A stretch of 64,000 nt of DNA from Candidatus Iainarchaeum sp. (GTDB lineage: Archaea > Iainarchaeota > Iainarchaeia > Iainarchaeales > UBA10219): assembly GCA_018304425.1 (NCBI GenBank), contig JAGVWE010000007.1, positions 19,853 through 83,852 of the forward strand, read 5' to 3'. Each line of letters starts with the position of its first letter. The first letter of the stretch is position 1. Positions 32,385-35,645 of this stretch are shown here, one piece after another. The notes beneath the pieces are model-generated. The model had not been told where the DNA came from. It saw only the letters and a program-made list of their open reading frames with translations, and searched no databases. A program made the position numbers and the translations under genes.

Positions 32385-32457
32385 GGGCGTGTAGTCTAGT
32401 CTGGTAGGATACCAGCTTTGGGAGCTGGCGACCTCGGTTCAAATCCGGGCACGCCCA
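32385..32457 (+). tRNA. tRNA-Pro(TGG), intronless
   Basis: 73-nt cloverleaf GGGCGTG...CCAGC-TTTGGGA-GCTGG...CACGCCC-A; TTTAAAA box upstream. Confidence 0.95.
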
Positions 32458-32566
32458 TCCTTTTAAAGCCGCTTTTTTTCTTGGCTGGGCTGGGGGAGCC
32501 GCTTCTAGTGCCAAGCCTGCTTTGTCTATCAGGGCAGGGCCTGCACGAAGATTATTATGCCTGGTG

Positions 32567-33772
32567 TTAAAACCGGATGGCGGGTTCTTTTTCCGTGAGC
32601 CATTCTTGGAGGTTCTTGTTTTCTATTTCGATGTTTTCTTCGGTGCTTTTGCTTGTCTTTCCGGGGTAGAGGATGGTTGCTTTCAGGGCCTTGTTTTTTT
32701 TGCAGAATTCCATCAGGCCTTCCTTTTCCCTTTTTGGCAGGTTTTCGGAGTAACAAACGTTTATCGGCAACAGGCTCGTTTTTTTCTTTGCGACGAAATC
32801 GACTTCCCCGGCGTTTTTCCAGTAATAGGCCTCGAATCCCCGGTGCTTGAGTTCGATTGCAACTGCTGCCTCGGCAAGCCTGCCCCTGTCTTCGGTGAAT
32901 GACTTTGAAGCGTATTGCTGCATTCCCAAGTCAAAGGCAAAGACCTTTCTGGGCTTTGAAAGGGATTCCTTTAGGGAGAACGAAAAGAACGGGACCTGGA
33001 AAACCAGGAAGGAGGCTTCCAGGTAACCCAGGAACTGTCTTATCGTGTCGTACGACAAGCCAAGGGCGACCCGCATTTTTTTCAGGCTTACTTGTTTTCC
33101 GGAGTTCGTCAACAGGTAAAACGCAAGGTTTCGTAAAGCCGCAGGGTCTCTCACGTCATGCCGCGTAATTATGTCTTTAATCAAGGCGAGTTCGAAATAG
33201 GACTCCAACAATTTTTCTTTTTTTTCGGGGTGCAAGGCGACTTCAGGGTAGCCCCCAATCTTGAGGTAGGCGTTAAGGCCTTTCTTGGTTACGCGCTGAA
33301 ACTCGCTGAAAGAAAAAGGCAGTACTTGAAAACCAATCCCCCTTCCACCCAAAGAAGTCGCAAACTCGCTGCTCAAGAGCTTTGCGGAAGAACCCGTGAC
33401 TATTACCTGGCACTGCCGTGTGTCGACGGCCCTTCGGACCCATTTCTCCCATCCCTCGACTAATTGCACTTCATCGAAGACAAGGGTGTCTTTCGCCTTC
33501 AAGCCGTCTGCAAAAGCGTCCAGTAAATCGGTGTTCAACGAGCCCACAAGCTTCGGGTCTTCCAGGTTGACGTACCGTGTCAACGTGTTCTCCGGCATTT
33601 TTTTCAGAAGCCTTCGGGCGACAACGGATTTCCCTGAACGCCTGGGGCCATACAAGAAAACGACGTTGCGACTGCCCACGAAGGGCAGTATGTCATCTTC
33701 AACGTCTCTTTTGAAGGTAGTCTCTTTGACGGCCCATTTTTCCAGAAGCTCGCCTAATTCCCTTGAAAGCAT
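32567..33772 (-). CDS. AAA_14 / DUF4143 ATPase
   Basis: GPRRSGKS, FDEVQ, TGSS, GGYPE, EVDFV. Confidence 0.9.
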   Translation of the reverse strand: MLSRELGELLEKWAVKETTFKRDVEDDILPFVGSRNVVFLYGPRRSGKSVVARRLLKKMPENTLTRYVNLEDPKLVGSLNTDLLDAFADGLKAKDTLVFDEVQLVEGWEKWVRRAVDTRQCQVIVTGSSAKLLSSEFATSLGGRGIGFQVLPFSFSEFQRVTKKGLNAYLKIGGYPEVALHPEKKEKLLESYFELALIKDIITRHDVRDPAALRNLAFYLLTNSGKQVSLKKMRVALGLSYDTIRQFLGYLEASFLVFQVPFFSFSLKESLSKPRKVFAFDLGMQQYASKSFTEDRGRLAEAAVAIELKHRGFEAYYWKNAGEVDFVAKKKTSLLPINVCYSENLPKREKEGLMEFCKKNKALKATILYPGKTSKSTEENIEIENKNLQEWLTEKEPAIRF

Positions 33773-33794
33773 GAAAAACCGGTGCGCAAACGAA

Positions 33795-33831
33795 TATATA
33801 AAGGGTTACGTTACAACGTAACCCTATATAA
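33795..33831. promoter_or_regulatory. Symmetric operator/promoter
   Basis: AGGGTTACGT-TACA-ACGTAACCCT perfect 10-bp inverted repeat flanked on both sides by TATATA. Confidence 0.5.
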
Positions 33832-33853
33832 AGGCTCAAAAAACGCTGTTGGC

Positions 33854-34058
33854 GGGTTTAAACCCCCAAACAGGATGTAAGCCGGGCCAGGCCTATGCAA
33901 CGCATAGGCCGTTTCCCCGAAGACTTTGTCTTCGGGGCCTCGTCTCCCAACAGGGAGACAAGGTCGCAGGCCTTTTGTAAAAAGGCGTGCGAGGCGAAGC
34001 CGAGCCAGTTCCATGCCGTGCATGGAACCTTTTCGCAGGCCTTTTGTAAAAAGGCCTT
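33854..34058. repeat. Cluster of short palindromes (REP/MITE-like)
   Basis: At least six consecutive hairpins; 23-nt direct repeat TCGCAGGCCTTTTGTAAAAAGGC at 33964 and 34033. Confidence 0.6.
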
Positions 34059-34181
34059 GGGCGTGTAGTCTAGTCTGGTAGGATACCAGCTTTGGGAAAG
34101 CCTTTTTTGCTTGCGCAAAAAACCCTTGGGAAAAGGGCTTCCAGCGTGCTGGCGACCTCGGTTCAAATCCGGGCACGCCCA
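34059..34181 (+). tRNA. tRNA-Pro(TGG) second copy with 50-nt intron (34097-34146)
   Basis: Exons identical to 32385-32457 except T38; BHB-like junction with one mismatch in the central helix. Confidence 0.85.
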
Positions 34182-34220
34182 TCATAGTATAGTTCCAATC
34201 AGCTTGTCCTTGTGGGTAGC

Positions 34221-35480
34221 TTACCTTTCAAGGAGCCATTTCCAGGCAGGCGTCACCCTTGTCTTGCCGATTCGGGTTTCTTGGTCATACGTTATGATGA
34301 TGCCTTTCCTGCCGCCAAATCGTTGGATGGCTTCCTCTAGGCCCCTGGTTTCGCGTTTCTTGTTTTCTTCGGTGAGCGTGTGGCACACCTGTATGCAGGC
34401 ATCCTTGGTTAGGAAGTCGCATTCAAATCCGTTCTTGTAATAGTTTATTTCAGTGTTGCCACGGCGGAACAATTCCGTGAACACAATGTTTTCCAGTATT
34501 CTGCCGGGGTCTTTTTCGGTGTTGTAGTAGTTGATGAAGCCATGGTCGCAGACATAGGCCTTTTTCAGGTAGGCCGATTCCTTTTTGAAGGATTTTTGTT
34601 TTGCATTGACAAAGAAGCAAAAGTATGCGTCTTCAAGGCATTTCGAGTATTTCTGTATAACGGAGGTGCTGGATTTGTAGCCACTGCTTTTCGCAAAGTT
34701 GTTGAATTTGTTCATTGAGTACTCGGAAGCATATTGCCTCGTGAGGTTCTTCATGAGCAACCGCATCAGTTCGATGTTCTCTACCTTGAACCGCTCGACG
34801 ATGTCCTGGAATAGCGTGGTTTTGAAGTATTGGTCGATGAACTCCAGCTTCTTTTCCAGCACTATTTCCGGGAACCCACTCAGGTGCATGAACTCGTCAA
34901 ACGCTTTTTTTACGGCTGCTTTGGTTCCATTGAACTCCCAATTCCTGCCCGGGCGGATGCCCCGTATTCCAAGGAATTCCTTGAATGACAAGGGCATCAC
35001 TTGAATGGGATAGTCCCGTCCCCTCACGGCAGTGGCGATTTCCTTGCTTAAAAGCCTCGAATTGGAGCCGGTGACATAAACCCGATAAGCTTCGTCGTTC
35101 ACGCGCCTGACGAATTTTTCCCAGCCCGCCACATTCTGGATTTCGTCAAAAAAAAGCAGGGGTCTTTTGTCCGGGTAAAGCTCGCCATAAGCTTCCAGTG
35201 CCAGCCCCAGCTGGCTGGCTTTCATTTCCGAAATCCGTTCGTCCTCGAAATTAAGGTAGAGAAAATCAACCAAATCCAAACCCTTTTTCAGGTGTTCCTG
35301 CATGATCTGGTAAAGCATGTAGGTTTTGCCGGCCCTCCTGGGACCAAGGATTACGAAAACCTTGTTGACCTCCTTGAATTCAGGCACTTCGACGTCTCTC
35401 TCGAATGCCTTCGGCAGCCCCCTTGAATGAAAACCCGCAATGGCTTCCTTGACGGCTTTCTTTATCTCGACATCCAGCAT
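34221..35480 (-). CDS. AAA_14 / DUF4143 ATPase
   Basis: GPRRAGKT, FFDEIQ, TGSNS, SGFPE, ECDFL. Confidence 0.9.
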   Translation of the reverse strand: MLDVEIKKAVKEAIAGFHSRGLPKAFERDVEVPEFKEVNKVFVILGPRRAGKTYMLYQIMQEHLKKGLDLVDFLYLNFEDERISEMKASQLGLALEAYGELYPDKRPLLFFDEIQNVAGWEKFVRRVNDEAYRVYVTGSNSRLLSKEIATAVRGRDYPIQVMPLSFKEFLGIRGIRPGRNWEFNGTKAAVKKAFDEFMHLSGFPEIVLEKKLEFIDQYFKTTLFQDIVERFKVENIELMRLLMKNLTRQYASEYSMNKFNNFAKSSGYKSSTSVIQKYSKCLEDAYFCFFVNAKQKSFKKESAYLKKAYVCDHGFINYYNTEKDPGRILENIVFTELFRRGNTEINYYKNGFECDFLTKDACIQVCHTLTEENKKRETRGLEEAIQRFGGRKGIIITYDQETRIGKTRVTPAWKWLLER

Positions 35481-35570
35481 ACTATACTAGCCCCCCAACA
35501 GCTATTTAAATCTTTCTTTTAAAAGAAAGAATTATGGCAAAATTGTTCTCTTAAAAGAATGCTTTTGCCT

Positions 35571-35645
35571 GCGGCCATTAGTCTGGCCCGGCAGGCTGCC
35601 CCACTTTGGGAGCTGGCGACCTCGGTTCAAATCCGGGCACGCCCA
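35571..35645 (+). pseudogene. tRNA-Pro(TGG) remnant (att-like repeat)
   Basis: 35604-35645 identical to the 3' half of 32385-32457; 5' half degenerate (TAGTCTGGCCCGGCAGG) and cannot form the acceptor stem. Confidence 0.85.

Follow-up and report, generated by a model that had tools for sequence, protein, structure and literature searches.

Two single-gene ATPase units between copies of a proline tRNA gene in a DPANN archaeon

Three copies of a tRNA gene and two ATPase genes

Candidatus Iainarchaeum sp. is a DPANN archaeon whose 1.48-Mb genome assembly (92.6% complete) carries, on contig C7 (JAGVWE010000007.1), a locus at which copies of the gene for tRNA-Pro(TGG) alternate with two genes for ATPases of one family. 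Here we describe this locus and weigh the ways in which its two units may have arisen. The window is the 64,000-nucleotide (nt) stretch of contig C7 that was analysed (contig positions 19,853 to 83,852), and coordinates refer to it unless another contig or locus is named. Along the locus lie tRNA-Pro(TGG) copy 1, ATPase 1, an intron-bearing copy 2, ATPase 2 and a remnant, copy 3. This five-part layout had been proposed by an earlier reading of the letters and open reading frames alone (the sequence-only reading), and all five parts were recovered.

Copy 1 (32385–32457, forward strand; 64.8 bits) is an intact, intronless tRNA-Pro(TGG) gene and likely the working one; a TATA-like box on the same strand about 30 nt upstream (32350–32359) would serve as its promoter. 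Copy 2 (34059–34181, forward strand) is interrupted by a 50-nt intron (34097–34146) and is identical to copy 1 over 39 nt on the 5′ side and 36 nt on the 3′ side, the exons differing only at base 38. In copy 3 (35604–35645, forward strand), 42 tRNA bases from base 31 to the discriminator are identical to copy 1, as had been reported, and the match continues for one further base. The locus thus has an intact tRNA at one end and an exact 42-nt 3′ part at the other, as is seen in tRNA-integrated elements. Exact matches of 35–43 nt are far beyond chance. The units that they bound measure 1,674 and 1,464 base pairs (bp), and the spacers have GC contents of 0.50 and 0.48, compared with 0.61–0.66 for the nearby ligase and VIT1 genes.

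Copy 3 was not scored as a tRNA by Rfam. The sequence before its identical part (35571–35603, forward strand) is degenerate, as the sequence-only reading had it, but it is closer to Pro(TGG) genes of other families than to copy 1: in a comparison with 141 distinct tRNA starts, many of them from Pro genes, its best alignment to an other-family Pro(TGG) scored 16.5, compared with 12.0 to copy 1 and at most 12.5 for 60 shuffles. Copy 3 is therefore likely to be a foreign 5′ half joined to a host 3′ half, as judged from these alignments, although an old native copy subjected to gene conversion would yield the same picture. An apparent promoter homology of copies 1 and 3 was discounted, as the stretch is part of the ATPase 2 operator.

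ATPase 1 (32567–33772; 401 amino acids) and ATPase 2 (34221–35480; 419 amino acids) are both encoded on the reverse strand and share the Pfam pair AAA_14 and DUF4143. The second had been described as a diverged member of the same family, and with only 31% identity between them the two are not a local duplicate. Both match the PADLOC defence candidate PDC-S01 over their full length (309 and 336 bits) and have its defining fusion of an ATPase to a PD-(D/E)XK domain, here DUF4143. In the consulted part of one survey, PDC-S01 is reported as the fourth most common prokaryotic defence candidate, and compact systems of this kind as enriched in DPANN archaea (PMC12988326). Both ATPases have probably been retained as defence sensor-effectors. 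An alignment-based structure model reached a pLDDT of 92 (38 for a single-sequence model) and points to a STAND-like fold for ATPase 1; its nearest matches over residues 3–293, a span without the nuclease domain, are the archaeal STAND-like ATPases 2qen (Z 17.0, root-mean-square deviation 3.1, 250 residues aligned) and 2fna, followed by plant NLR resistosomes. The top structural matches are not recombinases, and a sequence search of the PDB with the ATPase gave no match. Where the nuclease motif E-x-K is expected, ATPase 1 has N-x-C and ATPase 2 has Q-x-C; the acidic residues E301, E323 and D325 are invariant across 72 sequences. Upstream of ATPase 1 is a 22-bp palindrome (33803–33824), and upstream of ATPase 2 a palindrome with a second half-site (35511–35560); both are conserved before relatives of the respective genes and are likely operators, that of ATPase 1 autoregulatory. 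Relatives of ATPase 2 were not found in viruses, and its matches in metagenome contigs were only 33–41% identical.

Copy 2 has features of a whole gene. A TATA-like element lies about 190 nt before it (33854–33865, forward strand; a presumptive promoter) and is followed by a hairpin-repeat leader (33881–34058, forward strand). This hairpin repeat family, seen at 8096–8265, 33881–34146 and genome-wide, is found upstream of, downstream of and within many tRNA genes and makes up most of the introns, including that of copy 2. Since the promoter-like box and hairpin leader follow the layout of other tRNA genes here, copy 2 is a whole, lineage-type gene and not an attachment-site fragment.

The intron of copy 2 is inserted on the forward strand at the canonical 37/38 position, but it fits its gene poorly. 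A canonical archaeal tRNA intron forms a bulge–helix–bulge with four central pairs; in copy 2 three of four pairs form, with U34 opposite C. Among the other introns of the genome, seven pair 4/4 by script, and the eighth, in tRNA-Gln, pairs 4/4 by eye at ARAGORN's boundary. Base 38 of copy 2 is U, not A as in copy 1, and the 3′ junction is of the Pro(GGG) type: the neighbouring intronless tRNA-Pro(GGG) (36859–36931, forward strand) has U38 and matches copy 2 in the flanks on either side of the loop. In relatives, two Pro(TGG) introns have a fitting partner and A38, and one Pro(GGG) intron resembles copy 2 in both its partner type and U38. These comparisons somewhat favour transfer of the intron together with U38 from a Pro(GGG) allele, the alternative being two changes, one of them a point mutation. 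A single, short splicing-endonuclease gene is present in the genome, probably encoding a homotetramer, and in the consulted text of PMC5829648 only other endonuclease types cut non-canonical introns. Because the helix is mismatched and the endonuclease is probably a homotetramer, copy 2 may splice poorly and survive since copy 1 exists. The mechanism of tRNA intron transfer is stated to be unknown in the part of PMC4090602 consulted; copy 2 may offer a rare snapshot of such a transfer.

The site in relatives and the surroundings of related ATPases

In eight genomes of seven other families, Pro(TGG) is followed by Pro(GGG) at a distance of only 22–848 bp; in the six of these loci that reach the DNA ligase gene, the ligase start lies about 0.1–2.1 kb upstream, and proS is downstream. 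In the present genome the gap between Pro(TGG) and Pro(GGG) is 4.4 kb and the interval between ligase and Pro(TGG) is 11 kb. Both arrays described below, together with the surface-protein gene between them, therefore fill one expanded intergenic space. The locus is thus not invariant, and the units are absent from an orthologous site that has a single-copy target, as the sequence-only reading had anticipated, although this holds at family distance and without a same-species pair. A pattern for the Pro(TGG) 3′ half matched 77 of 196 genomes of the order; incomplete genomes and variant tRNAs account for some of the 119 without a match. Three of the 77 have double matches: this one, G014, in which the copies are in tandem without cargo, and G005, in which the second half is at a contig end; a duplicated 3′ half with cargo was found in none of the other matched genomes. 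A search of metagenome contigs with an exact 38-nt pattern returned no close strain.

If the tRNA were a specific target, relatives of the ATPases should share it; they do not. Twelve loci of ATPase 1 relatives (64–84% amino-acid identity) were examined, 11 of them distinct, and five of the 11 have flanking direct repeats at five different sites, only one a tRNA: a 448-bp repeat that takes in the end of one gene together with the gene that follows, a repeat of 61 bp or more from the end of a gene for a membrane protein, 35 bp of a tRNA-Leu, and repeats of 33 bp and 155 bp. At four of these five loci one repeat begins no more than 12 nt from the ATPase stop. For ATPase 2, repeats of 27, 124 and 182 bp flank relatives at three of the six loci with both flanks (four further loci were truncated or lacked the gene and are outside the count), none in a tRNA. 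Overall, the duplications range from 27 to 450 bp and have no sequence in common, and the unit borders recur: one repeat usually starts from the ATPase stop codon and the other ends 70–120 nt before the ATPase start.

This footprint extends across the order. Of about 347 DUF4143 matches across 151 genomes, 150 were listed, and from these 90 regions were picked for flank length; they contained 101 ATPases, 89 of them testable, and direct repeats were scored between 600-nt flanks. Repeats were found at 18 of 89 ATPases and 2 of 106 control genes (Fisher's exact test, 2e-5), or 16 and 0 under a stricter score; counted by locus, the values were 14/77 and 1/61, and in inverted orientation, as a control, 1/89 ATPases scored. 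Adjacency to a tRNA was seen for 4 of 89 ATPases, compared with 9 of 106 controls. These ATPase units do not target the tRNA specifically. The sequence-only reading had taken the units for tRNA attachment-site elements awaiting a trans-acting integrase; that part of its interpretation was not supported, since kin are found at unrelated duplicated sites with no preference for tRNAs, while the absence of an integrase, the empty site and the likeness between the two arrays all held. With the footprint around 20% of these genes compared with 2% of controls, and with clear unit borders, movement without mobile elements becomes testable, and a tRNA 3′ duplication in such a genome need not be the sign of a provirus.

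Several further arrangements were seen around ATPases of the family. In one case (L172:5405-6681) the ATPase gene ends within an antisense tRNA-Leu, its stop codon falling in the 3′ end of the tRNA, and a 35-bp piece of tRNA is found upstream. L098 (G095:C33) and L139 (G115:C32) each have three DUF4143 ATPases, separated by surface-gene 3′ ends in L098 and by an AT-rich repeat in L139. In L127 and L130, ATPases lie between tRNA-like 3′ sequences that ARAGORN did not call as genes.

How the units may have been added

We favour, with a probability of about 0.58, the reading that two single-gene units were added successively by general homology-anchored recombination, in which the tRNA served as an anchor rather than as the site of a tRNA-specific integrase. 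General recombination is preferred to a tRNA-targeting integrase because kin ATPases sit between duplicated ends of many genes. Incoming DNA from a related lineage would carry a gene end, or a tRNA, followed by cargo; RadA, whose gene is present in the genome, would pair it with the resident homologue, and the other end would join at a short homology or a second repeat. The resident gene end would thereby be displaced downstream as a stub, and repeated arrivals would build an array. A unit flanked in this way could loop out or re-enter through the same repeats, and redundant tRNA copies could then recombine, giving the intron and U38 of copy 2 and the foreign–host chimaera of copy 3.

Displaced stubs should look like alleles rather than decayed duplicates. 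We compared 15 hand-picked pairs of gene ends, one of which may be in the wrong frame (five further entries were excluded for an unresolved frame or a repeat that runs past the stop). Of the differences, 134/258 fall at codon position 3, none of the 15 stubs has a new stop, and many finish at an equivalent stop. In a simulation with 14 pairs, 3.6 new stops are expected if half of the changes arose by decay (P(0) = 0.026). Because of the position-3 excess and the lack of new stops, this comparison moderately favours two working alleles of different lineages over self-duplication followed by decay. Displacement of stubs is supported for the protein-gene cases and for the 5′ half of copy 3, whereas the 3′ exon of copy 2 is host-identical.

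Several observations count against recombination anchored by homology. Had a foreign circle entered by a single crossover, the 3′ exon of copy 2 should be foreign, yet it is host-identical. The stub test is borderline and rests on hand-picked pairs, with P(0) rising to 0.07 at 35% decay. Some repeats are young and near-exact (61/61; 124 bp at 97%; 155 bp) and are as well explained by a target that duplicated itself as by a donor allele. No repeat is detectable at 71 of 89 ATPases or at 6 of 11 ATPase 1-relative loci; of the 18 repeats, 5 either have low complexity or are common to tandem ATPases, leaving 13, and the P value is overstated because related genomes are not independent. The comparison contains no same-family genome, so the order of events is not fixed, and no near-identical empty allele was seen. 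The genome has no match to DprA, and no uptake route is known. Finally, many integrase sites begin at the anticodon loop, and the 42-nt identity of copy 3 begins there too, which suits an integrase site and favours the sequence-only reading.

This last point bears on an alternative close to that earlier model, in which two larger elements integrated at tRNA-Pro(TGG) and decayed until only an ATPase and attachment sites were left, as in the accretion of cis-mobilizable elements (CIMEs). Tandem accretion with loss of the integrase is described in the consulted part of PMC5704250, and copy 3 is identical from base 31 to the tRNA end. The genome also has integrases, with three PF00589 matches: an Xer-like recombinase gene and two pieces of one integrase that heads an island beside tRNA-Thr(CGT), an IS200 transposase lying between the pieces at the junction of contigs C1 and C7. 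All three are outside the spacers, each of which consists of one long open reading frame plus regulatory DNA, with no integrase gene or remnant; the insertions are thus integrase-less, as had been claimed, and do not contain the remnants expected of ordinary decayed proviruses. Among these candidates for the trans-acting integrase that the sequence-only reading would seek elsewhere in the genome, the sole tRNA-linked one is the split gene at tRNA-Thr, no intact tRNA-linked integrase being found in the 92.6% complete assembly. The same ATPase clades occur at unrelated targets of variable length (five for ATPase 1 kin and three for ATPase 2 kin) with no tRNA enrichment, whereas related CIMEs share one target site; copy 2, with its host-type leader, is an entire tRNA gene instead of a 3′ fragment; and the 34-nt 3′ half of the tRNA has no exact match in viral contigs, weak evidence as only exact matches were sought. 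We regard decayed elements as unlikely.

No more probable is a self-mobile, one-gene element, in which the ATPase-nuclease would bind the palindrome and cut DNA, and repair would insert the unit with a long target duplication. The tight borders at palindrome and stop codon and the invariant acidic residues fit this idea, and double-strand breaks have been suggested, in the consulted sections of PMC2853133, to drive insertions of restriction-modification genes. Yet later trimming could also give tight borders, the same footprint surrounds AbiE, Fic, PIN and RelE-like cargo, both ATPases of the window lack E-x-K, and repeats are no commoner with the full motif (2/23) than without it (11/56; 5/10 where unclassified). 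In its boldest form, which we consider equally doubtful, PDC-S01 genes would be one-gene selfish elements, bounded by palindrome and stop codon, that insert themselves at almost any gene end and duplicate the target without an integrase or transposase; here the duplication would have freed a tRNA copy to take up a paralogue's intron, with a helix not yet adapted.

Less probable again is local tandem duplication of the tRNA, driven by hairpin repeats, with the ATPases arriving independently and gene conversion keeping the 3′ halves identical. The cargo-free tandem Pro(TGG) of G014 has hairpin spacers, hairpin repeats surround many tRNA genes here and copy 2 bears signs of paralogue exchange; however, copies 1 and 3 have no hairpin leader, two same-family genes would have had to arrive independently and exactly between copies, and the 10-fold excess of repeats around the family elsewhere would be left unexplained.

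Parts of the stretch are contained in 18 public DNA runs, at least half of it in nine, with no RNA run listed. Six runs were compared, as contigs only, and these break at each repeat. In four runs, each unique segment and its entry into the repeats was recovered without differences, and a contig of run X6 covers the 5′ exon of copy 2, the intron and the passage into ATPase 2, also without differences (the runs may include the source sample). An artefact in which strain variants were joined through tRNA repeats is highly improbable given these recoveries, the bridging contig and repeats of merely 35–43 nt, even though order across the repeats was not re-derived from the public contigs. Contig depth does not measure copy number and was set aside: the cassette contigs stood at 19.8 and 20.8 (flanks 15.2–15.7) in X1 and at 10.6 and 11.7 (flanks 6.8–10.1) in X5, and some other low-GC pieces are likewise at equal or higher depth than their flanks.

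Homology-anchored addition has partial parallels among known systems, for which we draw on the consulted portions of the papers cited. Insertion with long target duplication was described for restriction-modification genes by Furuta, Abe and Kobayashi in 2010 (PMC2853133); the present units resemble those insertions in carrying less than 20 kb of defence-type cargo and no mobility gene, in being flanked by direct repeats longer than 30 bp whose length and sequence vary (here 35–43 nt around units of 1.5–1.7 kb), and in their enrichment over average genes. Here, by contrast, in DPANN archaea, the cargo is a single PDC-S01 ATPase or a toxin-antitoxin pair with no restriction or modification genes, many repeats are diverged homologous gene ends, units stack and no same-species empty site was seen. 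In Vibrio, effector–immunity genes of the type VI secretion system and Rhs loci form displacement arrays by homology-facilitated illegitimate recombination (PMC5361080), in which, as here, cargo is added beside a conserved anchor and older parts are pushed downstream with no integrase. Our anchor differs in being a tRNA or any gene end, with cargo unrelated to it and no known natural transformation. CIMEs are likewise small, integrase-less tandem units at a tRNA, bounded by its 3′ part, but their attachment sites stay specific to a single integrase type and their source is larger elements (PMC5704250); here the targets are variable, the middle copy is an entire tRNA gene and no parent element was seen. 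The locus does not belong with the tRNA elements that encode an integrase, and it lacks the fixed target of CIMEs.

Two comparisons concern the tRNA itself. At the Caldiarchaeum tRNA-Thr gene, a 1.8-kb insertion with one open reading frame lies between a tRNA fragment and an intron-bearing tRNA and is linked to intron gain (Sugahara et al. 2012, PMC3293823); there a 5′ half forms the fragment, a role in recombination or DNA binding was predicted for the reading frame, and alleles were cloned from strains, whereas the cargo here belongs to a known ATPase family and the intron, at the canonical position, is mismatched. Intron transposition in Thermoproteales (Fujishima 2010, summarized in PMC4090602) similarly involves an intron that fits another isoacceptor gene; here there is one case, between neighbouring paralogues, with a splice helix not yet adapted. 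Our literature search, which largely took in sources other than subscription papers and supplements, found no description of repeat-flanked DUF4143 or PDC-S01 genes.

Neighbouring genes and other repeat-bounded cargo

Between copy 3 and Pro(GGG), the ancestral neighbour of Pro(TGG), and outside the repeat-bounded units, is a gene for a rubrerythrin–VIT1 fusion (35666–36790, reverse strand). Relatives have little or nothing between the two tRNA genes, and its host-like GC suggests an older gain. On the other side of copy 1, a gene for a 1,270-amino-acid surface protein with a LamG domain and a VIPEY C-terminal tail (28464–32276, reverse strand), presumably of the PEF-CTERM type, separates the tRNA array from a second array (22073–28420, reverse strand), which contains PIN toxin-antitoxin pairs, AbiEi/AbiEii and a PDC-S27-type ATPase, with diverged 3′ ends of the surface-protein gene as separators. 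The surface-protein gene is thus bracketed by two arrays, and the second has the same repeat footprint, in agreement with the sequence-only reading on both counts. Within the surface gene, two bases (30701 and 30712) differ from the window in all four runs that recovered each unique segment, and a low-depth contig of run X6 has a variant patch at 29562–29618. Two PIN toxin-antitoxin units of the second array (23563–24333 and 25915–26707) are near-identical (86% over 809 bp); run X8 has a 54-base insertion in one of them.

Around AbiE, ParE/RelE-like, Fic, PIN and MazE-like cargo, this genome has the same footprint at protein-gene 3′ ends (the LigD-N gene, a short gene at 43018/44210 and the surface gene), at one 5′ start (an AbiE pair) and at tRNA-Tyr. 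A survey of the tRNA genes, as called for by the sequence-only reading, found clear nearby 3′ duplicates only for Pro(TGG) and Tyr. The tRNA-Tyr insert (L293, G000:C3:187639-190587) is 2.8 kb long, is bounded by a 66-bp repeat, 46 bp of which extend beyond the tRNA, and carries Fic, methyltransferase, GNAT and ParE-like genes.

Other features were noted in passing. At 43018–44323, a RelE-like pair, which we take to be a toxin system although it has no Pfam match, lies between two 110-bp copies of the 3′ end of a short gene. From 61043 onward (L297), a 24-bp exact repeat surrounds thrB, thrC and Fic genes, with a related short motif inside, and may be regulatory. The island headed by the tRNA-Thr(CGT) integrase is low in GC and has a possible end repeat of 13–14 nt (L002:590-1405, L003:98-598; L298); a 30-nt tRNA-Thr-like match on C4 was dropped, being inside coding-type sequence. 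A second, divergent tRNA-Asn(GTT) is at 15433–15504, with another on C4, and tRNA-Ile(TAT) is on C5. Several small genes on G000:C1 (at 13335, 14158, 28237, 29956, 210187 and 215410) are preceded by a common AT-rich element of 34–56 bp, probably an operator family.

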